Of a stretch of 64,000 nt of DNA, positions 9,283-57,679 are shown one piece after another; the first letter of the stretch is position 1, and each line of letters starts with the position of its first letter. Location of the stretch: the NCBI RefSeq assembly GCF_902652985.1, contig NC_047030.1, positions 6,882,001 to 6,946,000 of the forward strand, read 5' to 3'. The translations under genes were made by a program, and so were the position numbers. The notes under the pieces are model-generated. The model was not told the DNA's origin. It saw only the letters and a program-made list of their open reading frames with translations, and did no database searches. This stretch comes from Pecten maximus. Lineage: Eukaryota.

Positions 9283-9653
9283 GGGAGCCTGAAGTTAGTT
9301 CCGAGTTCCGAGTTCCGTTTAAGTAAAACGGAACTGGGAACCAGTTCCGAGTTCCGTTTAAGAAAAACTGAAATACTATGTATTAGCTTCATAGTATTTC
9401 AGTTTTTCTTAAACGGAATTTGGAAACTTATTCCTAGTTCCGTTTTTCTTAAACGGCACTAGGTACTGGGACCAAAATCAAAAAAGCTAATACATAATAT
9501 TTCAGTTTTTCTTAAACGGAACTCGGAACTGGGACCTTCATCAATAAAGCTAATTCATAGTATTTCAGTTTTTATTAAACGGAACTCGGAACTGGTTCAC
9601 AGTTCCGTTTTACTTAAACGGAACTCGGAACTCGGAACCAACTTCAGGCTCCC
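9283..9653. mobile_element. Non-autonomous Mutator/MULE-type MITE (371 bp) with ~105-bp TIRs and 9-bp TSD
   Basis: TIRs GGGAGCCTGAAGTT...TATTAGCTT (9283-9389) and AAGCTAATT...AACTTCAGGCTCCC (9547-9653). Perfect TSD TGAAAACGT at 9274-9282 and 9654-9662. Interior consists of further copies of the TIR sub-motif catagtatttcagtttttcttaaacggaa. Confidence 0.85.
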
Positions 9654-11234: not shown

Positions 11235-11345
11235 AATTCATAGTATTTCAGTTTTTATTAAACGGAACTCGGAACTGGTTCACAGTTCCGTTTTACTTCA
11301 ACGGAACTCGGAACTCGGAACCAACTTCAGGCTCCCTGAAAACGT
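11235..11345. mobile_element. Duplicated right TIR + TSD of the 9283-9653 MITE, embedded in the 33-bp array
   Basis: Matches 9552-9662 with one substitution, including ...caggctccc-tgaaaacgt and the downstream flank. Confidence 0.9.
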
Positions 11346-12917
11346 TGTCTCTTCCGTGGACTAATAGAATCTTACATGGGCCTTTTCCCTTAGACTAAAA
11401 GAATCTTATATGGGTCTTTACTGTGGACTAATAGAATCTTACATGGGTCTGTACTGTTGACTAATAAAATCTTACATTGGTCTGTACTGTGGACTAATAG
11501 CATCTTATATGGGTCTTTACTGTGGACTAATATAATCTTACATGGGTCTTTACTGTGGACTAATATAATCTTACATGGGTCTGTACTGTGGACTAATAGA
11601 AACTTACATGGGTCTGTACTGTGGACTAATACAATCTTACATGGGTCTGTACTGTGGACTAATACAATCTTACATGGGTCTGTACTGTGGACTAATATAA
11701 TCTTACATGGGTCTGTACTGTGGACTAATACAATCTTACATGGGTCTGTACTGTGGACTAATAGAATCTTACATGGGTCTGTACTGTTGACTAATAAAAT
11801 CTTACATTGGTCTGTACTGTGGACTAATAGCATCTTATATGGGTCTTTACTGTGGACTAATATAATCTTACATGGGTCTTTACTGTGGACTAATATAATC
11901 TTACATTGGTCTGTACTGTGGACTAATAGAAACTTACATGGGTCTGTACTGTGGACTAATACAATCTTACATGGGTCTGTACTGTGGACTAATACAATCT
12001 TACATGGGTCTGTACTGTGGACTAATATAATCTTACATGGGTCTGTACTGTGGACTAATAGAAACTTACATGGGTCTGTTCCGTGGACTAATATAATATT
12101 ACGTGGGTCTGTACTGTGGACTAATAAAATCTTACGTGGGTCTGTACTGTGAACTAATAGAATCTTACATAGGTCTGTACTGTGGACTAATATAATCTTA
12201 CATGGGTCTGTACTGTGAACTAAAAGAATCTTACATGGGTCTGTTCCGTGGACTAATATAATCTTACATGGGTCTGTACTGTGGACTAATATAATCTTAC
12301 ATGGGTCTGTACTGTGGACTAATATAAACTTACATGGGTCTGTTCCGTGGACTAATATAATATTACGTGGGTCTGTACTGTGGACTAATATAATCTTACA
12401 TGGGTCTGTTCCGTGGACTAATATAATATTACGTGGGTCTGTACTGTGGACTAATATAATCTTACATGGGTCTGTACTGTGGACTAATATAAACTTACAT
12501 GGGTCTGTTCCGTGGACTAATATAATATTACATGGGTCTTTACTGTGGACTAATATAATATTACGTGGGTCTGTACTGTGGACTAATATAATATTACGTG
12601 GGTCTGTACTGTGGACTAATATAATCTTACATGAGTCTGTACTGTGGACTAATAGAATCTTACATGGGTCTGTTCCGTGGACTAATATAATCTTAAGGGG
12701 TTGTTCCCTGGACTAATATAATCTTACATGGGTCTGTAATGTGGACTAATAGAATCTTACATGGGTCTGTACTTAGGACTAATAGAATCTTACATGGGTC
12801 TGTACTTTGGACTAATAGAATCTTACATGGGTCTGTTCCGTGGACTAATAGAATCTTACATGGGTCTGTACTTTGGACTAATAGAATCTTACATGGGTCT
12901 GTACTTTGGACTAATAG

Positions 12918-13028
12918 AATTCATAGTATTTCAGTTTTTATTAAACGGAACTCGGAACTGGTTCACAGTTCCGTTTTACTTAAACGGAACTCGGAACTCG
13001 GAACCAACTTCAGGCTCCCTGAAAACGT
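12918..13028. mobile_element. Second duplicated right TIR + TSD of the MITE, embedded in the 33-bp array
   Basis: Matches 9552-9662; lies exactly 1683 bp after the 11235 copy. Confidence 0.9.
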
Positions 13029-14444
13029 TGTCTCTTCCGTGGACTAATAGAATCTTACATGGGCCTTTTCCCTTAGACTAAAAGAATCTTATATGGGTCT
13101 TTACTGTGGACTAATAGAATCTTACATGGGTCTGTACTGTTGACTAATAAAATCTTACATTGGTCTGTACTGTGGACTAATAGCATCTTATATGGGTCTT
13201 TACTGTGGACTAATATAATCTTACATGGGTCTTTACTGTGGACTAATATAATCTTACATTGGTCTGTACTGTGGACTAATAGAAACTTACATGGGTCTGT
13301 ACTGTGGACTAATACAATCTTACATGGGTCTGTACTGTGGACTAATACAATCTTACATGGGTCTGTACTGTGGACTAATATAATCTTACATGGGTCTGTA
13401 CTGTGGACTAATACAATCTTACATGGGTCTGTACTGTGGACTAATAGAATCTTACATGGGTCTGTACTGTTGACTAATAAAATCTTACATTGGTCTGTAC
13501 TGTGGACTAATAGCATCTTATATGGGTCTTTACTGTGGACTAATATAATCTTACATGGGTCTGTACTGTGGACTAATATAATCTTACATTGGTCTGTACT
13601 GTGGACTAATAGAATCTTACATGGGTCTGTACTGTGGACTAATACAATCTTACATGGGTCTGTACTGTGGACTAATACAATCTTACATGGGTCTGTACTG
13701 TGGACTAATATAATCTTACATGGGTCTGTACTGTGGACTAATAGAAACTTACATGGGTCTGTTCCGTGGACTAATATAATATTACGTGGGTCTGTACTGT
13801 GGACTAATAAAATCTTACGTGGGTCTGTACTGTGAACTAATAGAATCTTACATAGGTCTGTACTGTGGACTAATATAATCTTACATGGGTCTGTACTGTG
13901 AACTAAAAGAATCTTACATGGGTCTGTTCCGTGGACTAATATAATCTTAAGGGGTTGTTCCCTGGACTAATATAATCTTACATGGGTCTGTACTGTGGAC
14001 TAATATAATCTTACATGGGTCTGTACTGTTGACAAATAGAATCTTACATGGGTCTGTACTTTGGACTAATAGAATCTTACATGGGTCTGTTCCGTGGACT
14101 AATAGAATCTTACATGGGTCTGTACTGTGGACTAATATAATCTTACATGGGTCTGTAATGTGGACTAATAGAATCTTACATGGGTCTGTACTGTTGATTA
14201 ATAGAATCTTACATGGGTCTGTAATGTGGACTAATATAATCTTACATGGGTCTGTACTTAGGACTAATAGAATCTTACATGGGTCTGTACTTTGGACTAA
14301 TAGAATCTTACATGGGTCTGTTCCGTGGACTAATAGAATCTTACATGGGTCTGTTCCGTGGACTAATAGAATCTTACATGGGTCTGTACCGTGGACAGGG
14401 ATAGCAATCCGAGTGTAAAAGTGTAGTTAGCTTGATGCATGTAT

Positions 14445-14610
14445 ATTTACCATTGTATGGCAATGCCACTATATAAACCTACCAATTCAGTTGCGAGTTC
14501 ACCAGCTTATGAACTGCCAACTGAAATTTGAATTTGAAAATTTCAAAAAGAAATCGCACGACAAATAAAAAATAGCAGATGGTAAATATAAGCATTGAAC
14601 GGCTTTCAAT
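14445..14610 (-). mobile_element. Hairpin-ended element, subfamily B, truncated copy (B1)
   Basis: Inverted copy, with an internal deletion, of ~27945-28140. Starts atttaccat; inner complement atggtaaat at 14579-14587 is followed by the start of the hairpin arm, which is cut off by element A1. Confidence 0.75.
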
Positions 14611-16367
14611 TAAGGATTGAATAATGTTATGTTGAGGTGTATGGGGGTATAAACCTCAATAGGTCTTGAGACAAATTTATTATGAACTGCTTCGGTTTAT
14701 ACCCCCATACACCTCAACATAACTTTATTCAATCCTTATATTTATATTTTTTGATATTTTGTACAATATTTTGTCTTTGACAAATAGGGACTTGTGCAAG
14801 TCTACCACAGAACTTACCGAAATGTACGTCATCACTCTTCGTCTACATATGGTTAATACTTTTAGGATTTCTTTCGTGAACAAACTTAATAGCGAATTAA
14901 AACAAATATTAGTTTTAAAGGAATTTATTTCATATAAATATGATCACTTTTGAAAAGGAATTAAAAAAATATAGTCCAAGCTCAACAAATGTATTCCTAC
15001 GCCGGACTTGATATAGTTCATTGAAAAATATTTACATTTTCACTTCGCTCCGCCTCAATTAACATAGTAAACTCAGATCAATTCATTTCCCGTTGAAGAT
15101 TTTGGGTCGCGTGCTTCTGTTCTGAGGGACGAATCACTTTCTTGCCGGCGCGTGAATACATTCACTGAGTTTACAATGGCGATCGAGTTCTGTACCGCCT
15201 CAGACTTGAATGCACTTTCACTTTGTGAATTGTGTAACATTGTTATAAACGTATATGAACACAAGTGGAATAGCCGCTTTATGTGCTAATAAAAATGCCA
15301 GTATAATGCAGACAATTTAGAAAACAGGATCTGACAGAACACTGACACTCTCGATAGCACCGAGCTCATGACCTACGTAGCGCAGTAGGTCTAACGTTAG
15401 CTGTATCTCGAATGCCATGCTTAATACCATTTCAGTGGTCACAGAAAATAAAGCTCAATTTAAACACTATTTAACAACACAAAACGTAGCAGAAGTATGC
15501 TATATCGAGCACAGGGACACATTATTGTCGTAATTTGACTCAATCTAAACATGGAGGACACAAGTTTCCGGCCGTCGAATACCGCCAATTTTCAAATCAA
15601 TGTTTCTTTACTTACTATTATCAGAATTTACATCCCAAAAAGCCAGTGCGACAATGAAATCCAATATTTCAAGAACACCATGTATATCACCAGCTAACCT
15701 GCGACTAAAATCCACATTGTTACACTTTTTCTCGAGCTCTGAATATCCCAGCAATTAGACTGCATCACATCATTTTTTTAACCGAGTCCCTGTGTCTCGA
15801 GTGACCAAATCACACACATACTATACCCTCAACACTGCACTTAAAATTCGTATCTATATGGGTATTGCTAAGTTTTTATTATACAATATCATAAATATTT
15901 GTTATAAATGAATATTTTACCTTGAAAATATCGTATCTATGTGCATCAACATCGTTAATAATCAAAACGTGTATGGCACTATATTTTGTGTTGCCTTGGC
16001 GACGAGAATATTTGACTGTCTGCTGTTCCACTACTGTGCACACATGTACGATAAGTATAACAATGTTACAAAGTGACGCACTTACGTCACACTGTTGCGA
16101 CCGAATTTTGCAATCTGGTGACGAAGTTTTAAATTTGGTTAACGTAAATAATAGGATTGATTGTCAATTTTGTTGCTTGCATGGACTGATGAAGGGAAGT
16201 GAACCTCGTGCAAATGGTACATGAACTGCTTCGCAGTTCACTTCATTTGCACGAGGTTCACTTCCATTCATCAGTCAATGCAAGCAACAAAATTGACAAT
16301 CAATCCTTAAATGACTCGAGTTAACTGTGGTAGGTTCATTGAGTCTGAATTGAGTGGAAATATAAAT
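14611..16367 (+). mobile_element. Hairpin-ended element, subfamily A (A1; ~475 bp of its own sequence), interrupted by element D
   Basis: 45-bp hairpin arms at 14611-14655 and 14694-14738, then atttatattt, whose complement aaatataaat is the far terminus (16358-16367). Body nearly identical to 27410-27803 plus 28144-28205. Confidence 0.8.
15030..16309 (-). mobile_element. Hairpin-ended element, subfamily D (1280 bp), nested in A1
   Basis: Starts atttacatt and ends in a ~158-bp hairpin (16152-16309) preceded by aacgtaaat. Flanked by AAT/AAT (15027-29, 16310-12). The empty site attgaaaaatgactcgag is present in copy A2 at 28141. Confidence 0.8.
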
Positions 16368-17231
16368 ATTGCTTGACATCACTAAAAGAATACAATGACG
16401 TCAGGTAGATAATTCTTTATTATGACGGCATATCGCGTGTCAGATGTCTTTTCCTACCCCGGTAAAGACAGATTTTCCACAGCAACCTTTTTATCACCCT
16501 GTGGAGAGAAAGTTGCCTTTCCCAAATTTAACCAGGGGACAGCTCGCTTGAACATTTAACGTCGCAACTCACAATATGATGACGTCATCGCTTTTTGCCG
16601 TCTAACCATATCACATTCACATAGCATCAACAGTTTAACCATATATTCTATCCATTGATACACCCCGATGTATTTGGTTCAGTGTTACATATTGCGGTAT
16701 CTAAAGACAGAAAAGCATAGGAGAAAAACAATCAACCACCTCTGTGTCCGGATAAGATTTTAAAAACTAAGCACTTGTCAAAGTCTCGTCCTTAACTGTA
16801 CACATCTTATCCTCGGGTTCGGACACCACTGACAGCATCACACAGTGATGAGAGAGACTCTATTACATTTTTTTGTGCGGTAAATTATCAGTAAGCTGCT
16901 TTGGTGTACATAATTTTACATTCGTCCACCAGAAGGTTACATGTATGTCAAGGAAAGATTCCAAGGGTTTTCGAACCGCACATCCTTCTTTATAAATGTC
17001 GTCAAGTATGCAGGAGCTCGACCGCCCAACAATCTAGCGTGCCAATTCTTTTTTTGAAAAAGTCCAGGAGACGTTATTGGTAGCAGTTGGTAGCAGATAT
17101 AGATTTTCTAAGCTTAACGCTTTGGTGACGTACCGTTTATATGTTTGAGGCTTATACCGAGCAAGCCTTGTTTCTTTCGTCATTTGTATTTGAGCGTTGA
17201 TTCTTTGATAAATAAATAATGGTATCATCCG

Positions 17232-19620
17232 CACTAGTTTGTGTCGGTCTGGAGGTTAACGATACTCGTAATGTCTGTCTGAATTTATCACCAGTTTGTG
17301 TTGGTCTGGAGGTTAACGATACCCGTAATGTCTGTCTGAATTTATCACTAGTTTGTGTCGGTCTGGAGGTTAACGATACCCGTAATGTCTGTCTGAATTT
17401 ATCACTAGTTTGTGTTGGTCTGGAGGTTAACGATACCCGTAATGTCTGTCTGAATTTATCACTAGTTTGTGTTGGTCTGGAGGTTAACGATACCCGTAAT
17501 GTCTGTCTGAATTTATCATTAGTTTGTGTCGGTCTGGAGGTTAACGATACCCGTAATGTCTGTCTGAATTGATCACTAGTTTGTGTTGGTCTGGAGGTTA
17601 ACGATACCCGTAATGTCTGTCTGAATTTATCACTTGTTTGTGTTGTTCTGGAGGTTAACGATACCCGTAATGTCTGTCTGAATTTATCACTAGTTTGTGT
17701 TGGTCTGGAGGTTAACGATACCCGTAATGTCTGTCTGAATTGATCACTAGTTTGTGTTGGTCTGGAGGTTAACGATACCCGTAATGTCTGTCTGAATTTA
17801 TCACTAGTTTGTGTTGGTCTGGAGGTTAACGATACCCGTAATGTCTGTCTGAATTTATCACCAGTTTGTGTTGGTCTGGAGGTTCACGATACCCGTAATG
17901 TCTGTCTGAATTTATCACTAGTTTGTGTTGGTCTGGAGGTTAACGATACCCGTAATGTCTGTCTGGAGGTTAACGATACCCGTAATGTCTGTCTGAATTG
18001 ATCACTAGTTTGTGTTGGTCTGGAGGTTAACGATACCCGTAATGTCTGTCTGAATTTATCACCAGTTTGTGTCGGTCTGGAGGTTAACGATACCCGTAAT
18101 GTCTGTCTGAATTTATCACTAGTTTGTGTTGGTCTGGAGGTTAACGATACCCGTAATGTCTGTCTGAATTTATCACTTGTTTGTGTTGTTCTGGAGGTTA
18201 ACGATACCCGTAATGTCTGTCTGAATTTATCACTAGTTTGTGTTGGTCTGGAGGAGGTTAACGATACCCGTAATGTCTGTCTGGAGGTCAACGATACCCG
18301 TAATGTCTGTCTGAATTTATCACTAGTTTGTGTCGGTCTAGAGGTTAACGATACCTGTAATGTCTGTCTGAATTTATCACTAGTTTGTGTTGGTCTGGAG
18401 GAGGTCAACGATACCCGTAATGTCTGTCTGAATTGATCACTAGTTTGTGTCGGTCTGGAGGTCAACGATACCCGTAATGTCTGTTTGAATTGATCACTAG
18501 TTTGTGTCGGTCTGGAGGTTAATGATACCCGTAATGTCTGTCTGAATTTATCACTAGTTTGTGTTGGTCTGGAGGTTAACGATACCCGTAATGTCTGTCT
18601 GAATTTATCACTAGTTTGTGTTGGTCTGGTGGTTAACGATACCCGTAATGTCTGTCTGAATTTATCATTAGTTTGTGTTGGTCTGGAGGTTAACGATACC
18701 CGTAATGTCTGTCTGAATTTATCACTAGTTTGTGTTGGTCTGGAGGTTAACGATACCCGTAATGTCTGTCTGAATTGATCACTAGTTTGTGTTGGTCTGG
18801 AGGAGGTCAACGATACCCGTAATGTCTGTCTGAATTGATCACTAGTTTGTGTCGGTCTGGAGGTTAACGATACCCGTAATGTCTGTCTGAATTTATCACT
18901 AGTTTGTGTTGGTCTGGAGGTTAACGATACCCGTAATGTCTGTCTGAATTGATCACTAGTTTGTGTCGGTCTGGAGGTTAATGATACCCGTAATGTCTGT
19001 CTGAATTTATCACTAGTTTGTGTTGGTCTGGAGGTTAACGATACCCGTAATGTCTGTCTGGAGGTCAACGATACCCGTAATGTCTGTCTGAATTGATCAC
19101 TAGTTTGTGTCGGTCTGGAGGTCAACGATACCCGTAATGTCTGTCTGAATTGATCACTAGTTTGTGTCGGTCTGGAGGTTAATGATACCCGTAATGTCTG
19201 TCTGAATTTATCACTAGTTTGTGTTGGTCTGGAGGTTTACGATACCCGTAATGTCTGTCTGAATTGATCACTAGTTTGTGTCGGTCTGGAGGTTAACGAT
19301 ACCCGTAATGTCTGTCTGAATTTATCACTAGTTTGTGTTGGTCTGGAGGTTAGTGATACCCGTAATGTCTGTCTGAATTTATCACTAGTTTGTGTTGGTC
19401 TGGAGGAGGTCAACGATACCCGTAATGCCTGTCTGAATTGATCACCAGTTTGTGTTGGTCTGGAGGTTAACGATACCCGTAATGTCTGTCTGAATTGATC
19501 ACTAGTTTGTGTCGGTCTGGAGGTTTACGATACCCGTAATGTCTGTCTGAATTGATTACTAGTTTGTGTTGGTCTGGAGGAGGTCAACGATACCGTAATG
19601 TTTGTCTGAATTTATCACTT
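17232..19620. repeat. Minisatellite, 57-bp unit (cactagtttgtgttggtctggaggttaacgatacccgtaatgtctgtctgaatttat), ~42 copies
   Basis: Tandem array with occasional half-units and GGA insertions; source of the spurious ORFs at 17219 and 17884. Confidence 0.95.
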
Positions 19621-20522
19621 GCTGATGTTAATTCTATTGCCTTTTTGTCACAAGAAATCGGAGTAGATCAAAATATTTGATATGCAAGTAAAATGCCACA
19701 GAATGCCAACCATCAATGAGCTACCGGAGTACCTGCCCACTGTAGTCCAGTTCTACGACAGGTGTACATTCGATAGATACCCGGGGTCTTAGTAAAAAGT
19801 GCATATCCAAAACCCGATATTTTAAAGTGTTTTATGGTAAAAGCTATCAAGCACGGATCAGAGTAAGAAAATTACGGGTATAGATTTACATTGAAATCAA
19901 TTAATTTTCGTACTTTTTTCCAACTTATTGGGCAGAATAACGATATAATTATATGCATAACAAAAGGACAAAGATATCCACTCTAACGTGTTCCATCACA
20001 CACGCTACACACTCATCCTCGATAGGCCTACCATCATCTTATAGAAACATTTCTCACGTAATAATTAGCTCGGCAAAACAAAATAATAATCCATTTTAAA
20101 CACACTTCGATGCAAAAACTGTCTTCCTTGTATTTGATACAACTAGGCAGAGTTTATAAAAAGCATTGCTATAAATTCTAATTAAGATGTGATAACAGTT
20201 TAGATCAGACGCCATAGACCTTCATCCGATGTCAGAATGAAATTCTGTCTACCTTCATCAAGATGCATGGCCCTCGTCAACTTCAGCCTCCCTCTTACGA
20301 CTGACAATACACGTATTTCTCTCTATCTACACCCTCTAATAAAGAGATGATATTTAACTGTCGACTCGATTATGGCCTGGCAAACGAGCACAGACCGACG
20401 ATAGGAAATGGTCCTGATATGCTTCCCTTGGACGATCGATGTTACCGTCCCAACTGTCATGGCGGACTACAAAATGTAACTGTATCCAAGACTTCCTGAG
20501 AAGTGTCGGATTGGTCATGTCG

Positions 20523-20648
20523 AATTTGAGAAACAAGTTTTATTGGGTATATTATTTATACGATAAATTGAGAAACAAGTTTTATTGGTTATATTATTTA
20601 TACGATAATTTGAGAAACAAGTTTTATTGCGTATATTATTTATACGAT
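20523..20648. repeat. Three tandem copies of a 42-bp unit (aatttgagaaacaagttttattgggtatattatttatacgat)
   Basis: Direct reading. Confidence 0.85.
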
Positions 20649-23600
20649 TACCTGACTCATTGTATACCATCGTTAACAGAAATGTTCACTTCCGGCTGTA
20701 CAGATTTCCTTGGCAACCGACACAACCATGTTATACTGTTCATGTATAATTACCGGAAGTTGTACAGCTTAGTTGTATCATTTCTGTTCATAGATGGAAA
20801 CCTTGGCATTGTGGGGAATTAGCTAGAATTTGGGAAGGACCACGCCATTTTAACAAATTGTTAAAAAGTCATACACAATAACTGTGTTAATAAACTGATT
20901 TATAAACACGTGAATCACAGACAATTTATGAAGTAATGTTCCACTACATATTTGCCGAAACTTAAGAATTTCGACAATAATCAAAAAAATAATCAGTTTT
21001 AAAATTGATGGCTTTATTTCTAAGCTGCCACATAATTTTATTCGAATTTTGAATGTCATTACTTAGTTTTAGTTATGACAGAATCGGTTTCATCATTATA
21101 AGAACGGATCTTTAAAATATCCTACCAAAATAACATAATTTGATTAAGTTGGAAACATTAATTTGATTATCTACTGTTCTTCCTGTTCATAGCTTAATGT
21201 CCCATACTTACCGTGATATTAAATTATCGCGTTATAATCAGTTGATAGGTAGCTTGGTGAAATCTACTTAGATGTACATCATGAGTCACGCGATGGAACG
21301 TCATAAACATTGATATTAGTTTATGTTATTGACGTATATCAGGAAAAGATTCAAATTAAACTTATAGATGGTTTCATATTGGGGATTTAGGAATGTACCA
21401 AAATACCAAGGCCCTGCCCAGTTCCGAGTATCTGAGTGATACATTGAAAAGGAGCACGCACTGATCAAACGACCCAACTAGTGTACATTGTTCAGTTTTA
21501 ACCATTTATGATACCATCTGATATCAAGTGTATTGTATGGAATGTGCTTCTAAAACTTTCATTTTATTTACACCTAACGAGGTTCATCAAAACAAATTGA
21601 TGTGCAAGAATAGCAGGGGAAACTAATTAACTCCCAGTGACGTCAAATATCAAGTCATTTCGTTTATCGACTCATATTTTCAAAATAATTTCATAGATCG
21701 ACTTATCACTTAAGACAATGTCAAAACGGTTTTATCTTTACAATGAGCTACATGTATGACTGATATTTGTTATAAGACGTTGACTCGTGTGGTACAGAAA
21801 TGGTATACCTACTATATAGGTCTATCGTACCTGATATGGCGAAATCGGGAGAGATCTTAATTGTAAGACTGTAATACGCTATCGTATCATATGTTCGTAT
21901 TTAGGTACATAATGTAACTGTAGATTTTTTATTTCAGTAATTTCATTTCTGTTCAAAATCGGAAATAATTCCAATTCTGTGTTTGAATATAATGGGGTAT
22001 CCCGGGTGATTCACTATAGACGTTCTCATTTTGACATACTAACATGTTAGTTCAATATGGAACTTTATGAAACATATTACAATAATGGTGTTTTGGCGCA
22101 CCTTCACTAGTTGCTGCAGAAAACAATGTCAAAACACGAAGATATTTCCGGATTTAAAACATTCCGTCAGATTTCAAATCACATTAATCTGTCACAATCG
22201 GAACCCCTCGCCATTCTCTACGTAGCTATATACATGTATAGGTGAGGTGTTCCTCCGACTGCGAAACTACGCAAACTCTCCTAGAGTGCATGTGCGGTTC
22301 ACTTCATAACACAGTTGCCAACTCGCTATTTAGATTATATACTAGATCTATTATTGATTTCGAACTCGCATAATTAACGTAACCATCCAGTTAATTGGAC
22401 AACAAATAACATGTTCTCTTCGTTAAAAGTGTAATTATGTTCCGAATTCCTTTCTTGTACGATAGGTAAAGAGAAAGTAGTAGTTGCAGTTTGAATGAAA
22501 TGTAAACACAGTGTAAACATATGTGACTAATTACTCAGGAATACTCATCCGCAATATAATCCATACTACAAATAGATTTTTAAATGATGTGATTATTTTC
22601 TGAAGTAAATGTCACCAGAAGAAACTTCGAAATAAGAGTAACAAATTTATTACATACCACAAATACGTTTTTCAAGAATCTTGAAATTGCGTGAGCCGTT
22701 TACAGATGGAGATATTGCGTTGACAGACGAAGGCGAGGTACTCCGATTAATAAGTCAGTTTGGTGACCCTGTGAACTGAATCAGAGCCACCTTAATTACG
22801 AGTATTTCTCTCAGTGCGAAAATAAAACTACCGCTAAAATGCATATGTTTACAGTAGGCGAGGGGTCATGGTCTGTAAGACGCTTCGTTTACATTGATAC
22901 TTACTAGTAAAGTGGAAAAACAAAGTATATACAAGTTTTTTTTAAATGCATTTTAGAAGGAAATATTCCTGGCATTTTTATGAGTCACTAACGTATGTTG
23001 CTGAAATGAAGTACATTGTACATTTGTATGTAAAAGTAATTCCAATATCTTTAACTCAGCGTTCATGAGTAGTGTTAAATATCACAAGGCCTTGTACATG
23101 TATAATTTTTTTTTCCAATCAACGAAAAATATTTGAAGACGTGTTTCATCTTAATTTTCCAATACAGTGCAGGTAATAACACTCACGTGTTATGCATAAC
23201 GAACAGTAATTTGTATGATTAGGCAGCAGAACTCCATTTGCTTAAAAAAAGAGACTAAAGCGAAAATATTCGCTAGCTTCTAAAAACAGAAAATGTTTTT
23301 TAATTAACAAAATATGATCCATACCGATACGTTTTCAAATAGATAACTTTTTTGAGAGTGTAATCTGTCTCAGACAATTACAGTGATTACGGCGTGTTTC
23401 AGCACTAAGGTTTATAATGCTGGTTAAGTAGCAGTGCCGAATCACGTGTACAGTAAACATGGGCCAGGTCTGACTGGGAGACAGTCAGATGTGGTAACGG
23501 CAAGGGTTCGCACGGAAAACAATTACAGCAATCTTACAGTTCTCAGTGCCTGGATACTACACTGTTCTCGCGCTTGTGTGCACGTTTCAAACGGTACAAT

Positions 23601-24955
23601 TTCGTTATCATCCGTAAAATATTTCACGTGAAATGGTCTTAAATGACTTCGAGGTCCTCTTCAAAAGGAAAGAAGATGTTTCTCAATTTAAAAGGAAGTC
23701 GCACAGTTTTATAAGACTATAAATGGATATCATCCGAAAATATTAACGCAACTCACGTGTATATGCTCGTCACACACCGTGAAAACGTATTGACATCATG
23801 CCTAAATAAAGACGGTGTATTTTGACCCATCTTTTCATTAAAATCGACAGAAATAGTGGCAAGGAACAAACTGAATCAAACTGGATTTATGGATAAATGC
23901 ACAAGCATGTGGATCAAACTGGATTTATGGATGAACGCGCGTGCAATTGCGTAAGTGAACTTGAGCCAGAATCATATCTTTAAGCTGAATTTTATTTATG
24001 TTTTGTTAAATGAAAATGAAAGTGTTCAGTGATTTTACATGCAATTTTGTCAATTTTACAAGTTGAGAAAATTTGTAGGACCTCAGCGCTGAATATCTTG
24101 TTCGATTTGATTATGTTAAGAAATCAGTTTTAACCTGATTTGTGTGATTTGTTAAAACAGGAAGCAAAACTTCTACAGAATTATTTAATTTGCTTCAAGT
24201 AATTACGCTAAAGGAGTTGGCTAAAATGCGCAGTGGGTCTAATTTAAGCGTGCCTATCTAATAAACCGTACCAGGACGGAGAGTAAGGTTTCCGGAACTC
24301 CCTGCGGTAATATAAAATCAAGAAGGGAAGCAGTATACAAACTCCGGATGATAATCACGAGACCCGTTACAAGATAGTTTACCATGGGGCCAGAGCTAAC
24401 GTGATAATACTAGGGTTACACAATTACTGCCGGTAACACTATCACACCTAGATCGCGGCAGGGTCGGCACATATCTGTTCTATCAGAGAGCGACACAGAA
24501 ATCGATTAGCTTTAGGTAGACAGCGGAAATACAGTTTTAACACGGCCAGTGTCAAACGCTGGAGAATTGGCCTGACATTTCATCTATTGCGAATAGAGTA
24601 GAGCAATCGGTCTCTGTGAATATATAGGTACTGCTGTGAGGAGCTGACGTATTCAATGACTCCTCTAAGATTTATTTGTGATGGCCAAACAGACTTTCTC
24701 GGTATACCGTCAAGGTGCCATTTCTCATTTTTTCGTCTTCCGTAATTTAAAGATACATACGGATTTCGTTAATTATGAAGACAAGTTTCTTTTAAAACGC
24801 CGTAGTTTCTCATCGGTTAAACCGGATTCTGTGGAGAACTGTTTCCCCAAAAGACCTAATTAGTTATATAGACACAGTCAAAAGGGTATCCACACACGAC
24901 ATTTAAAGGTCAATAACTGAACCTGTGTTAGATTTTAGAAGAGACAGTTAAAAGA

Positions 24956-26207
24956 ATGGCGGATCTTTTTAACACGACAATTTTATCAAAGAATGAGACA
25001 GATTCTGGATTTTATCCGAAAAGTACTTTGGAACACTTTAGTGCCTGGTATGGCGGTATTCATGGCTACCTAAGTTTGATTGTCTGTTTTTTTGGAATTC
25101 CTACTAATTTCATCAACATTACAGTTTTGACCCGGAAACACATGGAGACTCCGATCAACCTCGTTTTGACATGGATGGCGGTATCCGATCTTCTGACCAT
25201 GGCTTCATATGTTCCATTTGCGATCCATTTCTACTGTGACTACCCGTCAAATTCCATCTCTCCGGACAAAAATAGCATTGCCTGGATGACATATCTCTTA
25301 TTTCACGTGAATTTCTCTGCCACCGACGCATACCATCTCCATTTGGCTGGGTGTTTCCCTGGCTATTTTTAGATACCACCATATTCAATCACCGGAAACG
25401 GGGAATTTCGCTAGGATGAGGCGCTTGATTAAATCTCGAATTGTTATTTTCGGAATTATCACCGGATCCGTGTTGCTTTTGATTCCTAACTACATGTCGA
25501 CAAATTTGGAATTACTCCGCGAAAATTCGTCGATGTATGTTTTGGAGGATTTAAAGCTGGGAACAGCTAATGTGAAACCAGTAGTTTTCTTAAATCTGTC
25601 TTTATACAGTGTGGTGGCCAAATTCATACCTTGCTTCCTCATGCTTGTATATGGTGCTTTATTGTTACGGACCCTCGATATGCAGGTGAGAATCAAACGG
25701 CGGAGACTGTCGAAACTTGGCGTCATTATTCAGCGCCCTTTACACACATCTCGTACAACAGTGATGCTTCTGGCCGTTCTTGTCCTGTTTCTGCTCACAG
25801 AACTTCCTCAAGGTATCCTCATCGTCCTCAGTCTAATCCGCGCGGGATTCTTTGAAGACGTCTATATCCCTCTGGGTGACGTCATGGATATTTTGGCTCT
25901 AGTCAACAATGGTGTAAATTTCGTTCTGTATTGTTCCATGAATCGCGAATTCCGCAGAACACTGCTTCGGATGATGTGTACCATGTCTGCCGAAAGAAAG
26001 TCGTCACTCGGCACCGAATTAATAACAGACTCAATGCGAAAATGTTCGTTGTTGACAGATAGAAACGCATCAATCCGAAACGATTTCACGCACGAGGACG
26101 TTCAGACGTTCAACCTCAGATGTAACGATGGCAACTCGGTAATGTCCGTATCTGCTCAACGAACCGTGACTGAGGAAAAACACGCGGGGACATACCACAA
26201 CATTTGA
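24956..26207 (+). CDS. Intronless class A (rhodopsin-like) neuropeptide GPCR, myosuppressin receptor / DMSR-1 / sex-peptide-receptor-like; ~416 aa once a +1 frameshift at ~25325 is corrected
   Basis: ORF 24956-25372 gives N-terminal N-glycosylation sites (NTT, NET), TM1 (HGYLSLIVCFFGIPTNFINITVLTRKHM) and TM2 (PINLVLTWMAVSDLLTM). Removing G25325 continues it as FHVNFSATTHTISIWLGVSLAIFRY (TM3), in frame with ORF 25416-26207. That ORF has TM5 (AKFIPCFLM), TM6 (RTTVMLLAVLVLFLLTELPQG), TM7 and helix 8 (MDILALVNNGVNFVLYCSMNREFR). These motifs are characteristic of the myosuppressin/DMSR receptor family. Confidence 0.88.
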
Positions 26208-27030
26208 TAGTCCCGTGCTCGGCTGTGAACGCGCAGGAATACGGGATGTATAACACCAAATGTCTGTGAAATACATCCACACCTGAAATTATGACGTCAT
26301 CAGATCAAAAGCACAAACAAAAATCAGATTTAATCTGCATCGTTATGAGCTGTGATTGATTGCACCTAATGTATGAATCGAGATTTTAAAATGTAGCGAA
26401 AACTACTGATAAAGATGTGAACTACGCGAGCTCCATCTGTCATTTTCACCGGAAGTGTTTTGATTATCACCGGAAGTGTCTCAATATCACCGGAAGTGTT
26501 TTTGGCACTAAAAGTATAAATATCCGAATATTTTGATTATTCACCACATGTGAGTTTTGTCAATATTGACGCAAGTAGAAATATGCGAAAGTGTCCAATT
26601 ATTATGGAACTGAAAATGATTGATGTTCCTCTCGATCAACGAAATCTATGTGTCAAACAAATGGATTGGTAGTGACAGTGTCGAATGCCCTGCTTTCTGA
26701 TATTTTATAAATTGGAAATATTGTTGTTGTTAGTCGTTTTGTGTACCACATCTTTGATAAACTAGATTTAGAGATTAAAATCGATTCCATGCCACTCCAT
26801 GTACAAATGTAGTTTATTGTCAAATTATCGTCCTACCAATTGAATTATAGATTCAATCAGCTGCATGCAATGTTCATGGAACTGGAATATTGAAATGATT
26901 TCCAAAATATTTAACTTATTTGAGTGTTTTTTTAAAACAACATCGACGCTACACCGCCGACAGGGGCTACACTATTTGTCACAAAAATTCATGACAACAA
27001 CGGTATAAAAATTTAATTTACACCGACAGT

Positions 27031-27406
27031 TAAGCAATGAACTGCTTTCATTTGGAAGTTATGGGCTGATGAATGCCAACTGGACAAAGGCAAATTTAAT
27101 GAAGCGCGCTTCATGTTGAATTTGCCTTTGTCCAGTTGGCATTCATCAGCCCATATCTTCCAAATGAAAGCAGTTCAATGCTTAAATTTACATTTGACAA
27201 CGATTTTTGAAGACTATATCCAGGAATTTTGGTTATACGATGAATAAACAAATTATTATCGTCAAAGCCGGAACAGCCTTTTCAACAGCCATCTTTCGTT
27301 ATCGCCGACGTTACAATTATGACGTCACTATAATAATGACGTCATAATAAAGATTTGGAAGTTATGGACTCGTAACCTATAGTGGGGCTGCAGTGTAAAT
27401 GTAAAT
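27031..27406 (+). mobile_element. Hairpin-ended element, subfamily C (~376 bp)
   Basis: ~155-bp hairpin 27031-27184 (taagcaatgaac...gttcaatgctta), then atttacattt (27186-27195), whose exact complement aaatgtaaat is the far end (27397-27406). Hairpin apex region is shared with subfamily B. Confidence 0.78.
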
Positions 27407-27409
27407 ATT

Positions 27410-28205
27410 TAAGGATTGAATAATGTTATGTTGCGAAGCAGTTCATAATAAATTTGTCTCAAGACCTATTGAGGTTTATACCCCCATACACCTCAACATA
27501 ACTTTATTCAATCCTTATATTTATATATTTTTGATATTTTGTACAATATTTTGTCTTTGACAAATAGGGACTTGTGCAAGTCTACCACAGAACTTACCGA
27601 AATGTACGTCATCACTCTTCGTCTACATATGGTTAATACTTTCAGGATTTCTTTCGTGAACAAACTTAATAGCGAATTAAAACAAATATTAGTTTTAAAG
27701 GAATTTATTTCATATAAATATGATCACTTTTGAAAAGGAATTAAACAAAATATAGTCCAAGCTCGACAAATGTATTCCTACGCCGGACTTGATATAGTTC
27801 ATTTAAGCATTGAATGGCTTTCAGTTGGCATTCATAGTCAATATGAATGCCAACTGGACAGAGGCAAATTCCATGAAGCGCGCTAGCGCTTCATGTTGAA
27901 TTTGCCTCTGTCCAGTTGGTATTCATATTGACTATGAATGCCAACTGAAAGCCGTTCAATTCTTATATTTACCATCTGCGAGTTTTTATTTGTCATGCGA
28001 TTTTTGTTTTGAAATTTTCTAATTCAAATTTCCCGCGCTTACCAGTAGCAGAGATCACTTCCTGTTGGCAGTTCATAGGCTGGTGAACTCGCAACTGAAT
28101 TGGTAGGGTTATATAGTGGCAGTGCCATACAATGGTAAATATTGAAAAATGACTCGAGTTAACTGTGGTAGGTTCATTGAGTCTGAATTGAGTGGAAATA
28201 TAAAT
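27410..28205 (+). mobile_element. Hairpin-ended element, subfamily A (A2), interrupted by element B2
   Basis: Near-identical to A1; runs taaggattgaa...aaatataaat; flanked by ATT (27407-09) and ATT (28206-08). Confidence 0.8.
27804..28140 (+). mobile_element. Hairpin-ended element, subfamily B (B2, 337 bp), nested in A2
   Basis: ~162-bp hairpin 27804-27965, then atttaccat; far end atggtaaat. Flanked by ATT/ATT. The empty site gatatagttcattgaaaaat is present in A1 at 15010-15029. Confidence 0.82.
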
Positions 28206-28320
28206 ATTAGAAAATAAATCATGACAGCTTCATCAAAATGATCACATATGATCACGTACCAAATATAAAGGTGGAGCTACATGTACATGTAAGCTCAAAC
28301 GTCTGGGGTGGTATATGTAA

Positions 28321-29170
28321 TGGTGTAAAGTATGTAACTTTGGGAGTTTGGTAACAGTGTAAAGTATGTAACTTTGGGAGTTTGGTAATAGTGTAAAGTA
28401 TGTAACTTTGGGAGTTTGGTAATAGTGTAAAGTATGTAACTTTGGGAGTTTGGTAACAGTGTAAAGTATGTAACTTTGGGAGTTTGGTAACAGTGTAAAG
28501 TATGTAACTTTGGGAGTTTGGTAATAGTGTAAAGTATGTAACTTTGGGAGTGTGGTAATAGTGTAAAGTATGTAACTTTGGGAGTTTGGTAACAGTGTAA
28601 AGTATGTAACTTTGGGAGTGTGGTAATAGTGTAAAGTATGTAACTTTGGGAGTGTAGTAATAGTGTAAAGTATGTAACTTTGGGAGTTTGGTTTTAGTGT
28701 AAAGAATGTAACTTTGGGAGTGCGGTAACAGTGTAAAGTATGTAACTTTGGGAGTTTGGTAGCAGTGTAAAGTATGTAACTTTGGGAGTGTGGTAATAGT
28801 GTAAAGTATGTAACTTTGGGAGTGTGGTAATAGTGTAAAGTATGTAACTTTGGGAGTGTGGTAATAGTGTAAAGTATGTAACTTTGGGAGTTTGGTAACA
28901 GTGTAAAGTATGTAACTTTGGGAGTTTGGTAACAGTGTAAAGTATATAACTTTTGGAGTGTAGTAATAGTGTTAGGTATGTAACTTTGGGAGTTTGGTAA
29001 TAGTGTAAAGTATATAACTTTTTGAGGTTGGTAGCAGTGTAAAGTATGTAACTTTGGGAGCTTGGTAATAGTGTAAAGTATGTAACTTTGGGAGTGTAGT
29101 AATAGTGTAAAGTATGTAACTTTGGGAGTTTGGTAATAGTGTAAAGTATGTAACGTAACTTTGGGAGTAT
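28321..29170. repeat. Minisatellite, 34-bp unit (gtgtaaagtatgtaactttgggagtttggtaata), ~25 copies
   Basis: Direct tandem repeat. Confidence 0.93.
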
Positions 29171-29174
29171 GTAA

Positions 29175-29918
29175 AGTTACGGAGAATACCGTATGTATTC
29201 ACAGATAAACCCCGTCAGTAAAGTTAGAGAGGATACCGTATGTATTCACAGATAAACCCCGTCAGTAAGTTAGAGAGGATACCGTATGTATTCACAGATA
29301 AACCCCGTCAGTAAGTTAGGGAGGATACCGTATGTATTCACAGATAAACCCCGTCAGTAAGTTAGGGAGGATACCGTAGGTATTCACAGATAAACCCCGT
29401 CAGTAAGTTAGAGAGGATACCGTATGCATTCACAGATAAACCCCGTCAGTAAGTTAGTGAGGATACCGTATGTATTCACAGGTAAACTCCGTCAGTAACG
29501 TTATTGAGGATACCGTATGTATTCACAGATAAACCCCGTCAGTAAGTTAGTGGGGATACCGTATGTATACACAGATAAACTCCGTCAGTAAGTTAGTGAG
29601 GATACCTATGTATTCACAGATAATCCCCGTCAGTAAGTTAGTGAGGATACCGTATGTATTCACAGATAAACCCCGTCAGTAAAGTTAGTGAGGTACCGTA
29701 TGTATTCACAGGTAAACCCCGTCAGTAAATTTAGTGAGGATACCGTATGTATTCACAGGTAAACCCCGTCAGTAAATTTAAGTTGCATACCGTATGCATT
29801 CACAAATAAACTCCGCCAATAAAGTTTAGTAGGATACCGTTTGTATTCACAGATAAACCCCGCCAGTTTAGTTTAGTAGAATACCGTATGTATCCATTAA
29901 TAAACCCTGTCAGTAAAG
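29175..29918. repeat. Minisatellite, 46-47-bp unit (gataccgtatgtattcacagataaaccccgtcagtaagttagtgag), ~16 copies
   Basis: Tandem repeat directly abutting the 34-bp array and decaying toward its 3' end. Confidence 0.93.
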
Positions 29919-31269
29919 TAAGATTTATTTTCATCAATTTCTTTGAAAATGACTGTTCAATGACGAACTACTAGTATATTGTATGTAGACGTGCACAAGT
30001 TCTAGCATCTAGTCATCAAATGGTAGACTTTTCAAAGTACTTTTTCGTTAAAAAAAAGGTGTAGAAATGAAACATGAGATCTTATTTTGTCGCTCTTTAC
30101 TATTTCAAAAATTGTCTTTAACATAGAGCCATTAGCAGTTTCAATTAAGCATGGATGTCAATGTTTTGTTTAAAAAAAAATTGTTTGCAAATTGCAGAAT
30201 CCCAGCAAATTCTTATATAAGTCTGCAAACACTTTTTCATACCCCTACGAACCTAAAAAAATATTGGCATCAATGCTTATAATCAATTTATGAAAATATT
30301 TCAAATTTAAAACACATTTTATGTACAATTTTACTTATGTATTAAGGGATTATTTTGAACAAATCAATACGCAACGTCAATGATCGTATTGTGACGTCAA
30401 GTTTTTCGCGCCATTTACTTTATTTAAACGATGTATAAAAAGAAAACCACAACCACGCAGAAAACTGCTTTCTGTATACAAGCAATGGAAAAATAATTCT
30501 TGGTATAACACAGAAATATTGTATCTTTCATTTCATGTCTCTGTAAAGATTGAAGTTTGGAATACTTATTGTAAATAACTGTAAAATATCTGATATCATT
30601 TGATCACGAAATATCACAATTATTATTACCCGAGTAAAACAATGTTATGGGGTTTCTAAAAAGCTGTTTATACAATATACCTTTAAGGAAATATTCCTAA
30701 AACTGTAATTTTTGTTTTTGTTTCATTAATTTTGATGAATAGTCTGACTCAAAACGAGGTTCTGTATCTGATAACATGCTCTGGGGTGTGACTATACCGT
30801 ATACGCCAAGCGACATTGGCTATTAAAGCTTGACGTTTTAGAGAAATTGTTCACCGATAGACAAGTTAATGACAGTTCAGGAGAAAGGAGCCCCAGTGTT
30901 GTATCTATCGCCTCTGGATAACGAAGGGTCCTACCATTTGAACAGAGTTTTCTACGCTATAACGACGATTCTACAAAGCTCTTAAGCCGTTAATTGTATC
31001 GCCGTGAACCAGGTTGAAACAGAAAACTCCAATAACGCTACCGGGTTCTGTAAACTTGTTGAAACATGAAAATGGAATTTATTGATTGAAATGTTCTGAG
31101 AAATTCAGAAGTTATTATGACTTGTTCCATTCACAATCTGATTTTCGAAAATGGTAAGTGACTTTTGATTTTCGTCCATCTCTTTCATTTCGTGATAAAA
31201 TGTTGATCTTTATGAGGCATCTCTTTAGCTTCGATTCGATGTTGTAAGTGCATATAAAATAAATCACTA

Positions 31270-46225: not shown

Positions 46226-46390
46226 GACACTTTATCACTAGCCCTCCACCTCTGGGTTGCGGGTTCGAAACCTACGTGGAACAGTTCCTTGTAGGATAGC
46301 CGTAGTTCGTAGGTGTTTCTCCAGGTACTCCGTTTTTCCTCCATCTCGAAAACCTGGCATGTCCTTAAATAAACCAAATAAACCAAACAC
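46226..46390 (+). mobile_element. 5'-truncated copy of the V-domain-like tRNA SINE
   Basis: gacactttatcactagccctccacctctgggttgcgggttcgaaacctacgtgg matches the 32187-32409 SINE; ends in aaaccaaat repeats. Confidence 0.8.
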
Positions 46391-46600
46391 AAAGTCAGCC
46401 CCGGTTAAACCACTGCTCCTATTGTTTATATATATGCGAATAAAATATACTAATAACTTAACGAATTACGTGTCAACAGCAGGGTCCGTGGCTGTTTATG
46501 ATACATACTAATATTTGATCAAGTAAATTCTGTTTAAATTGAACTTTAGTAGTGATTTATAATCTTGTAAAATATCACATATTTAGATTACCCATTAAGC

Positions 46601-50075: not shown

Positions 50076-50113
<38 letters not shown>

Positions 50114-55254: not shown

Positions 55255-56215
55255 ATCAACCTTAAATTTATTTGCTTGTTTTCAAATACGATTATTAGAT
55301 TAAAGAATAAAGGTAGCATTTACACAACTGAAACTCACAAGAGACATTTTCGATATATAAATTTATCATTTTTCGCCGAAGAAGGGACGGTTACGACATA
55401 ATTAAAAATAACTCATCGTTATCCAGTATATGTAGGATTGTCAAAATCAGTACCAAGGATATATAACGTGATTGATAGATAGTTTCAGACCCATGTATTA
55501 TTGAAAAATTGCAAATGTACAGACTTATAGAAAGGGCGATTACACAAATTGAAATAACTTGTGTCCAATCCTTTTGCAATTATTTTGCTTTAAAACTAAG
55601 ATTTTTTAGTCACCTATAAAATATTGCATATAATTCTAAGATTATGCGATATGTGATCCCCCCCCCCCCCCCCCCCCCCCTATTTTTGGACTTCCTTGTG
55701 CATCCCCTCCATTCAAAAATAACTAGAATACATGTGAGGATGCATGAGGTCAGGATCCTATTTGATGGAAACTTTCCTAATTGATGACTCAAAATACACA
55801 TAAGACGACGAGATAATATACAAATGAGGCTCAATTATAATGCTCCCCAGTCCTCTAATGCAGTGCGAAAGTCGATGTTCTGATGTAAACAAAAATGGCC
55901 GAATGAAAATGTGCTTGAAAGAAAATATTGACAGAGTCCGCCAAAATAAATAAATAAATACATAATGTAAATAAATAAAAAAATGAATTGAAAAAAAAAA
56001 AAATAAATAAAATGAATAAATAAATGAAAATGAAATAATAATGACAACCAACATGTGCGAGATATTAAAGTATCAGTCCACAGGAACTTGACACGATTTC
56101 ACAAGTTTCATGGGTAGTAATGGGATAACCGGACACGTGAATTTAGAATCACCTTCCTACACATCTGTCCTATGAGGTTCATACGAGGAAAATGACCGAG
56201 AATTGAACAAGTTAT

Positions 56216-56692
56216 ATTTACATTCCTAATGCGGTTTGCTAATATGAACATACCAAGTGAAAACAACAAACATATGACCATAAATACACTATGAAAACCG
56301 TATGAAAACATTGTCTCTCGTGCAAATCACCTGATTAATCGGGTCATATTAATACGCCATCGACAGTAAGACAGGAAGAGTAGCTTCCCTTGGATCGATA
56401 ACGTTGGTACGAGATAAGTGTTAAAAATATTGAATGATTGTATTTAATATTATTTTTACTTTAATACTTCTTTCTTTTTGTTTTATACAAAATTAAACAA
56501 AAAAGTCCGGAAAATGCGGAACGACATTAAAAACGTTTCGTCGTATACATGACAAATTTGTCTTTTTAATAAAATTTCTCGTTTTCTCGATATAAATTTT
56601 TTAAATCAAGGTTATGTAAATATATGAATTGAATAGATTTTTAAAATTTTCATTGCGGCTATAAATAATAAAAAAAATCTATTCAATCCATA
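56216..56692 (-). mobile_element. Hairpin-ended element, subfamily E (477 bp)
   Basis: Starts atttacat; inner complement atgtaaat at 56614-56621; after 1 nt comes the hairpin tatgaattgaatagattttt...aaaaatctattcaatccata (56623-56692). Flanked by TAT/TAT. Confidence 0.68.
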
Positions 56693-57679
56693 TATGGATT
56701 ACCACACATGTACTTGACACGAAGTCCCCATCCACCGTCCACATATATATAGGCTAGGTAGACAAAGTGATGTATGAAATAAACTGCTTGCACATGATCC
56801 CCCCTCCCCTCTTTTTAACAGTGGAGCTGAAAATAACACCAAAAATGCTAATGATGGCCTGTAAAATCTAGAATTGTTACCATTAAATTCTTATTCTATT
56901 AATTCTATTGAAAATAAAAAGAACATCAGTTTTGTGAGGATTTAAAGCTATGATACAAGTTTTTGCCCACATATTCGAAGATTCCAGGTCTATTTTTAGA
57001 TAGTTTGGATATCTTGACAGGAAGAGGAGGGCCATTGAATATAAATGTCATTAATTCAGTATTTCAAAGTACCCACAGTTCACATCCGTAGAGTGCAGAT
57101 GGGTATACTTTATTTGTTACAATTTTAGCAATAGTTAAAGGGTTTAATGCGCATTGATATGCCCCAGAACGTAAAAGGGCCATAGTGCCACTTTTTAATT
57201 TAGTGCATGCTTTTTTTTATGTATAATATACATATAGCCCGTACATATTAACCGTGTGATTCGGATTGCCCCGTGGTCACCAATATGTCAATACCATTCT
57301 GATGTCCATGGTTCAAGTATAATAATTGCAATCACTAATGGACGTAGCTTCGAATACCCGAGCCCACGATCCATGATACATTAAATTATATTATGTAGAT
57401 CGGAGGATTTGATATTTCTGTCAAGTCCCTGTGTGTAATCATTGCTTTTAAATTTCCCCAAATGCTCAATCACTTTTCCCCCGAAAAATCTTTGACACGT
57501 AACCTTACAAACACTATGGTACAAACGTCACTTGCTTAGTGGAGCTACCAAGCCCTCTTCCCCAGAAGTATCGCTCTTCCTCTCTCTTCATGATTCAACA
57601 CGATTACGTAACTATCTAGTCAAATATAACGTGACATCCACTTGACCTGTCAACAGTACATCTACACCGTAACTACACA

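Follow-up and report, generated by a model that had tools for sequence, protein, structure and literature searches.

The 64,000-nucleotide stretch of the Pecten maximus genome analysed here (the window; contig NC_047030.1, positions 6,882,001–6,946,000) contains two stacks of short transposable elements inserted into one another, each three layers deep and lying within 14 kb of each other. Self-comparison of the window resolved six copies, A1, A2, B1, B2, C and D, all short and related (Table 1). Families A, B, C and D carry no genes, start with TTAAG, end with AAATAT and have one long hairpin at one end, which reaches about 160 bp in these elements and measures 100–180 bp across the clade when intact; D has no open frame or coding remnant longer than 109 aa. 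We assign all four families, with high confidence, to the non-autonomous elements of CryptonA. Removing A1 from the sequence restores the outer hairpin arm of B1, showing that A1 is nested in B1. An initial annotation of the window, made from its letters alone, had described A copies sitting directly against B1 and C, which is true of A2, abutting the far end of C, and not of A1, which lies inside B1 rather than merely beside it. Aligned over 350 bp, the bodies of A1 and A2 show 2 substitutions and 2 gap positions, the two copies being distinguished mainly by separate hairpin deletions. A 480-bp relative with the same layout is probably the element called E in the initial annotation, whose ATA flank on its own strand is present at both ends. 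No clade start motif was found in the 10-kb neighbours on either side.

Table 1 Positions of the elements, their parts and the tandem arrays in the window.
Feature	Position	Strand	Description
B1, main part	14443..14609	-	B element with a short hairpin; includes the far end (14443), the inner copy of the junction and the inner arm of the hairpin; interrupted by A1
B1, rest of outer hairpin arm	16370..16376	-	Degenerate start, displaced by A1; A1 removal restores TCAAGCATTGAA..TTCAATGCTTA
A1	14610..16369	+	Non-autonomous, TTAAGG...AAATAT; carries D
A1 hairpin	14611-14738		Partly deleted, TTC tip; inner junction copy 14739-14749
Target of D in A1	CAT 15019-15021; spacer 15022-15027; ATG 16311-16313		Left half-site CAT, spacer TGAAAA (6 bp), other half-site ATG
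D	15028..16310	-	1283 bp, non-autonomous, at bottom-strand edge of target
D hairpin	about 16151-16309		159 nt, GCGAAGC tip
C	27030..27408	+	379 bp, non-autonomous; hairpin 27031-27184; inner junction copy 27185-27195
C far end			...GTAAATGTAAATAT; landing hotspot
A2	27409..28207	+	Non-autonomous, directly after C far end; carries B2
A2 hairpin	27410-27517		Partly deleted, GAA tip; inner junction copy 27518-27528
B2	27803..28142	+	340 bp, non-autonomous, at top-strand edge of target
B2 target parts	27800-27802; 28143-28148; 28149-28151		CAT; spacer TGAAAA; ATG
B2 hairpin	27804-27965		Followed by the inner copy of the junction, 27966-27976
Genomic target of the entire stack, right part	28208..28216	+	Spacer TAGAAA, half-site ATA; follows 27029 directly in the empty allele
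Another member of this clade	30145..30290	+	Covers the start, the hairpin and the inner site; far end not located
Related element	56214..56693	-	480 bp, same layout; ATA at both ends on own strand
Tandem arrays	1562-14396, 17232-19619, 28317-29916, 34268-39163, 40749-46214, 60520-64000		

The element boundaries had been read in the initial annotation as a 3-bp ATW direct repeat. Its junction letters are exact (gttc-ATT-[B2]-ATT-gaaaaat in A2 and gaa-AAT-[D, minus]-AAT-gactcgag in A1), as are the imperfect left flanks it reported for C (AGT) and A1 (AAT). The repeat itself did not survive comparison across copies. Among the 25 D copies with both ends, from 30 loci, the left trinucleotide was ATT in 16, AAT in 3 and TCT, ACT or TTT in 2 each, and the right one was ATT in 22 and ATA in 3; 26 A copies, from 30 loci, showed the same pattern. 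Across copies, the final T was the sole constant letter of the left trinucleotide, and the right one was constant in its leading AT alone; since these letters never vary they belong to the element itself, TTAAG...AAATAT. Left and right trinucleotides were equal in 14/25 D, 14/26 A and 1/25 B copies, and the 31 equal pairs among 65 pooled elements compare with 29.7 expected under independence.

Sites lacking an insertion led to the same result. The joined flanks of 79 elements gave matches for 20, including 7 true empty sites and 4 self-matches of stacked ends; the 7 paralogous empty sites, all with unequal trinucleotides, each present a clean single cut (AG^T, AC^A, AA^T twice, AT^A twice and AT^G, where ^ marks the cut). 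A comparison between individuals for presence or absence, which the initial annotation had suggested, found the C+A2+B2 stack absent in three samples. This empty allele was read in three of four sequencing runs, from three samples and three studies, one of them possibly the assembled individual, the fourth run being uninformative. In it, base 27030 continues straight into the letters of 28209 onward and the site reads CAG^TAG, so the whole stack is absent without a scar. Chance-level equality, unequal empty sites and this orthologous empty allele rule out a 3-bp duplication, and A, B, C and D insert without target duplication. The shared ATT/ATA core at which the initial annotation placed the crossover is likewise contradicted: the empty allele CAG^TAG contains no ATT, the seven paralogous cuts are clean, and the specificity reaches positions +7 to +9 (see below). 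In four loci (L007, L016, L170 and L268), an empty-site copy of 97–100% identity lies 80–750 bp from the filled site, the result either of a local duplication or of the merging of two haplotypes during assembly.

The target logo was built from 65 elements, obtained from 83 by removing three wrong-end calls, the window's own elements, one near-duplicate and the loci that had been chosen by their left flank. Numbered from a single cut between −1 and +1, it showed Y at −3 (58), A at −2 (61), T at −1 (47) and W at +1 (63) and, in the right half, A (36) or T (20) at +7, T at +8 (58) and R at +9 (59). Family B, sampled afterwards as an independent set, gave Y at −3 in 25/25, A at −2 in 24/25, T at +8 in 28/30 (background 0.33, p about 1e-11) and R at +9 in 26/30. 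The consensus, YAT^N6-ATR, is symmetric and fits 34 of 90 sites perfectly. According to the account in PMC3212892, tyrosine-recombinase sites consist of two inverted halves around a 6–8-bp spacer. Very probably, then, the elements use a symmetric YAT^N6-ATR target with a 6-bp stagger, as tyrosine recombinases cut.

Family A contains one perfect site, CAT-TGAAAA-ATG, and the window shows it used from both sides. The B2 site (CAT^TGAAAA-ATG) and the D site (CAT^TTTTCA-ATG) are reverse complements of one and the same site; each element follows CAT, B2 on the top strand and D on the bottom one, in opposite orientations. The neighbouring sites that the initial annotation placed about 7 bp apart are therefore the two cut points of one palindromic site, exactly 6 bp apart. 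The junction formed by joining the two ends of an element, TAT^TTAAGS-ATT, has the same shape as the target; the donor T stands opposite a target A at +1 in 27/30 B copies, and identity at this position is not required. Sequence-specific, oriented integration by a recombinase, also proposed in the initial annotation, is upheld by this logo and by the presence in the genome of tyrosine-recombinase elements with the same ends.

We searched the genome (918 Mb) for such recombinases and obtained at least 150 DUF3504 matches. The top matches have the same layout with other end letters, and in 10 of 20 long-ORF (open reading frame) DUF3504 loci a hairpin and a junction copy enclose the ORF, the letters differing from family to family. 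A protein search with the L119 frame was the sole source of partners with the exact T-TAA...AT grammar, namely L119, L168, L169, L188, L252 and L260 (1.8–2.9 kb). By alignment, D shares both termini with a DUF3504-type recombinase element, the 3.7-kb L241 (84% over bases 11–337 and 74% over 1127–1283), and A, B and C match the sister elements L260 and L252 at 74–88% over 31–91 bp. The full-length relatives, 1.8–3.7 kb long, comprise the recombinase ORF and a short upstream frame. In some families (L094, L099 and L122) the hairpin-first strand carries the recombinase ORF; in most, the other strand does. In addition, two copies of a 536-aa DUF3504 frame lie 4.3 kb apart with the same flanks (L081; G000:C2:10692708 and 10697025), being one element inside a tandem duplication.

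The L241 frame (429 aa) scores above the cut-offs of PF12012 and PF00589, and PF12012 was above its cut-off in all 7 main ORFs scanned. The catalytic residues R170, the H-x-x-R motif (HCLR) and Y332 are kept in L241, and likewise in L168, L188, L169 and L119. A structural model of L241 (pLDDT 70.5) found its best match in Cre (E 9e-8), followed by the Tn1549 and lambda integrases. Across the 8 element frames scanned, Pfam returned only PF12012, PF00589, PF25561 or nothing, with no match to a reverse transcriptase, a DDE transposase or GCR1_C. The DUF3504 matches, together with weak QRICH1 matches, point to CryptonA rather than to CryptonV or another lineage. The clade numbers about 8,000 copies (11,950 pattern matches versus 5,376 in the control, corrected for the first position of the pattern), and other tyrosine-recombinase loci are also present in the genome.

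Next to the hairpin, about 11 nt form the reverse complement of the far end, so this inner site equals the end-to-end junction minus its central TT. In families A, B, C and D alike, what the inner site lacks relative to the junction is exactly the pair of T's flanking the cut. The two ends share no direct or inverted repeat with each other; each has an inverted partner inside the element instead. In the predicted fold of B2 with its flanks, the inner site pairs with the far end. Mismatches in the hairpin arms also show a strong strand bias: on the hairpin-first strand of 23 recombinase elements, a hand-picked and related set, mismatches were G.A in 71 cases versus C.T in 11 and G.T in 21 versus A.C in 7, and tandem GA occurred 25 times in 14 elements versus a single tandem TC in 1. 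The strand favoured by these mismatches, the hairpin-first strand, is the strand that is cut. Hairpin tips read GCGNAGC/GCGNNAGC in 11/24, and DNA mini-hairpins of the GCGNAGC type are described at single-stranded phage origins (PMC13037366).

The hairpins of A and B (L031-L060 and L277-L306) are often partly deleted or duplicated, ranging from 83 to 251 bp, and most B copies have a 71-bp hairpin that is derivable from the 162-bp form by slippage in two ways. Flip and flop of the whole hairpin, as in parvoviral terminal resolution, was considered and is not supported: the outermost arm asymmetry is mostly in one orientation (4/27 A copies differ), and only the tip flips often.

Preference for family members as targets, another proposal of the initial annotation, was borne out at the far end of C and not at the site within A. 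The A site was empty in 28 of 30 A loci. Genome-wide, 237 exact empty and 3 filled sites were found, two of the filled ones in this window; the filled-site pattern is limited to starts of the TTAAG type (site 1) and ends of the ATAW type (site 2), and of the 11 matches it gave, 8 proved to be empty sites with mutations. Outside the window, nesting thus amounts to 1 filled site of about 238, with about 0.2 expected from the motif alone (P = 0.18), and a general nesting hotspot at the A site is unsupported there (1 versus 237). At C far ends, 13 of the first 100 (of 400 listed), counted by eye, were directly followed by an element of the clade, a landing rate roughly 300 times that at perfect sites. 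The corresponding counts were 0 of the first 100 (of 690) for B far ends and 2/11 for E-type ends. The elements following C ends belong to several families and their flanks differ, which rules out amplification of one C+B composite as their source. The median distance is 3.4% for B versus 7% for C, making B the younger family, and locus L310 consists of the host repeat of L312/L335 with a C insertion plus a B at the C end, showing that the follower lands on C. The C far end is a true landing hotspot; it contains TGTAAA twice. Five loci (L338, L339, L340, L343 and L346) hold C-C dimers and a C-C-B triple stack, and the leading C of the dimers starts with TTAAGG rather than TTAAGC in 3/4.

How many strands are exchanged can be addressed from the spacers. 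If both strands were exchanged between spacers that differ, TTAAGS would be expected at some far ends, and this swapped-spacer product was seen in 1 ambiguous case (L105) in 198 far ends and in 0 of the first 100 B ends. Such a footprint, with the parental spacers kept at both junctions, suggests that only one strand is exchanged. We therefore read A, B, C and D, with a probability of roughly 0.6, as gene-less CryptonA elements that insert without duplication at the edge of YAT^N6-ATR sites, likely moved by a DUF3504 recombinase exchanging one strand of a folded donor. Taken by itself, the single-strand route is one we favour by a modest degree. Along this route, one strand would fold so that the inner site splints both ends together, with two T's bulged at the scissile bond, and the recombinase would join the ends into a circle. 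The circle junction, TAT^TTAAGS-ATT, would then undergo exchange with a single strand at a YAT^N6-ATR site in the genome, and the junction would be resolved by replication. Each insertion would leave TAT+N6+ATR at its far end, a renewed target that would give rise to head-to-tail stacks.

Several observations weigh against this reading. The motif alone leaves unexplained both the roughly 300-fold heat of C ends and the location of two of the three filled A sites in this window, and within the window the A1 site (CAA^TGCTTG-ACA) and the left half-site of C (CAG) are poor fits to it. As for the recombinase, the hairpin start of L241 is damaged, and the search for partners of A, B and C found the sisters L260 and L252 and no exact partner. 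Neither a circle nor a single-stranded form was observed; contigs cannot show circle junctions. The inverted repeats are equally compatible with double-stranded binding sites, and the second product could also be hidden if heteroduplex spacers were repaired with a strict bias. The tips of A hairpins stand in the opposite orientation in 8/22 copies that keep the tip, A1 included. Because the 23 elements of the mismatch set are related and hand-picked, p-values overstate the case, and the hairpins of the window's own clade (L168, L170, L241 and L260) are nearly perfect, with few G.A mismatches.

The same Cryptons and the same target could also be served by a double-stranded circle that undergoes exchange of both strands, following the model of Goodwin et al cited in PMC3212892. 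Repair of the 6-bp heteroduplex would then invariably go in one direction, and the hairpin, like the inner site, would aid protein binding or replication. A 6-bp stagger between symmetric half-sites is an ordinary tyrosine-recombinase site, the best fold matches (Cre and the Tn1549 and lambda integrases) act on duplex DNA, and hairpin tips do flip in A. A double-stranded circle is also what a 2026 review assumes in the sections used here, which describe the Crypton mechanism as undemonstrated (PMC13565253). We nevertheless consider this route unlikely, if by no means far-fetched: its swapped-spacer product is all but missing, mismatches in the arms are biased towards one strand, and that the cut one, the inner site lacks exactly the two cut-flanking T's in all four families, and plain excision and reinsertion does not readily yield about 8,000 copies. 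The initial annotation's own model, in which a 3-bp ATW core, shared or duplicated, is the crossover site and family members are generally preferred, accommodates the ATT/ATT flanks of 14/25 D and 14/26 A copies and the hotspot at C ends. Its duplication form is refuted, and as a whole it is very improbable given the chance-level equality (31/65 versus 29.7; 1/25 in B), the AG^T of the empty allele, seven clean cuts at unequal paralogous sites, the information at +7 to +9, which it leaves unexplained, and an A site that is not measurably enriched outside the window.

Two further explanations were considered. Movement through RNA, with the elements as non-autonomous partners of DIRS-type retrotransposons and the inner site as an internal complementary region circularising the complementary DNA, is improbable. 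Tandem G.A and G.U pairs are stable in RNA too. Other tyrosine-recombinase loci do occur in the genome, and an internal copy complementary to both ends resembles the internal complementary region of DIRS as described in PMC13465315. However, none of the 8 frames scanned had a reverse transcriptase match in Pfam, the partners consist of a recombinase ORF and a short upstream frame, and the strand that carries the ORF, seen from the hairpin, varies; according to PMC3212892, the recombinases of DIRS elements give no match to DUF3504, and mini-hairpins of the GNA type are far more stable in DNA than in RNA (PMC13037366). DIRS membership was accordingly rejected, the partner frames scanned showing no reverse transcriptase/RNase H. 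Hairpin-dependent HUH-type elements, Helitron2/Helentron- or IS200-like, would likewise insert without duplication, and the terminal hairpin and asymmetric inverted repeats recall Helitron2 (PMC3627910). Helitron2 as portrayed there, however, carries a short hairpin at each end and enters positions that follow runs of T, whereas the present elements have one long hairpin and a symmetric target, and those sharing their ends encode a tyrosine recombinase (no search for a Rep/helicase partner was made). Membership of Helitron2/Helentron was rejected on these features, and an HUH-type origin seems to us scarcely credible.

CryptonA elements and their short derivatives are known (PMC3212892; PMC5753468), and Crypton-A insertions are reported to be polymorphic in an oyster population (bioRxiv 10.64898/2026.02.10.705023). 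The present families agree with CryptonA as presented by Kojima and Jurka (2011; PMC3212892) in having partner elements with a DUF3504-type recombinase, its tetrad intact, as the only recognised domain, many short derivatives sharing both ends, and no duplication. In the parts of that paper drawn on here, animal Cryptons are said to lack terminal repeats, direct or inverted, and the terms 'hairpin' and 'palindrom' do not occur; the long terminal hairpin, inner junction copy, symmetric target with a 6-bp spacer and end hotspot described here depart from that account. Our literature search returned no description of this layout or mechanism in Cryptons, although Repbase entries, Goodwin 2003, Kojima 2019 and supplements lay outside it and may cover part. 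The superfamily is known; the present insertions add a precise target and cleavage map together with a testable mechanism.

Among other Crypton lineages, CryptonF and CryptonS (PMC3212892, PMC13465315 and PMC13565253, as far as their relevant passages go) are also tyrosine-recombinase transposons that prefer certain targets and do not truly duplicate them, one copy of the apparent repeat being the element's own. Theirs are terminal direct repeats of 4–6 bp that reflect microhomology with the target, and the Glomhopper paper takes short direct repeats in this sense (PMC13465315); here, identity is unneeded and two half-sites specify the target. Membership of CryptonF/CryptonS, which would call for such repeats matching the target, was rejected, as the trinucleotides are equal at the chance level, and in only 1/25 copies in B. 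CryptonV shares an animal Crypton lineage and target-site specificity, although by the description in PMC8869645 it enters microsatellites and not dispersed YAT^N6-ATR sites.

The closest parallels in mode of action are bacterial. Recombination of attC with attI in integrons (Loot et al, 2012; PMC3458562) and CTX phage integration at dif, as treated in PMC9345347, rely on a folded donor strand, a single exchange by a tyrosine recombinase, resolution through replication and stacking head to tail at one site. This course was demonstrated for integrons and is proposed here. Unlike the present elements, these bacterial systems rely on IntI or XerCD and a fixed platform site; here, the recombinase would be of DUF3504 type, the targets are genome-wide, and the site would be formed from both ends and an inner splint. 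Strand-biased circularizing integrative elements (SEs), covered in the same source, have tyrosine recombinases that copy out one strand as a circle and a 6-bp crossover region, but they take 6 bp of the donor flank along to the new site and their target lacks inverted repeats, whereas here no flank is carried and the target is symmetric. The evidence seems to us evenly balanced on whether animal CryptonA is the eukaryotic counterpart of integron cassettes, with a Cre-fold recombinase, a self-splinted strand, a single exchange needing no homology, a landing site rebuilt at certain ends, and growing stacks.

The insertions give the scissile bond on both target strands, the spacer length, the half-site consensus and the exchanged strand, as well as a candidate donor structure and intact recombinase frames, which makes the mechanism testable with oligonucleotides. 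They also correct the delimitation of these abundant repeats, the apparent 3-bp duplication being an artefact. If true, the single-strand route would explain thousands of copies of a recombinase-only transposon and would represent a scar-free, homology-independent DNA insertion chemistry from an animal.

Apart from these elements, the window contains a single-exon gene for a seven-transmembrane G-protein-coupled receptor at 24959-26209 (+), with PF10324 and PF00001 matches in both halves. The gene is split by a frameshift near 25325-25345, which may be an assembly error or a broken allele. Tandem arrays with units of 14–57 bp and a strong strand skew make up about 40% of the window (Table 1), and a unit of about 2.25 kb is repeated about three times at 48621-55543 with 94–99% identity, two of its copies containing N stretches. 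The element at 9283-9653 has inverted arms of 110 bp at its ends and repeats of 63 bp further in. Three copies of a different interspersed repeat family, about 200 bp in length and common in other loci, are present at 32186-32376, 46226-46370 and 58675-58857. Finally, a short palindromic repeat at 46596-46680 (...TAGTCCCGAG...CTCGGGCTA...) has relatives elsewhere, one of which forms a 39-bp tandem array in L270.

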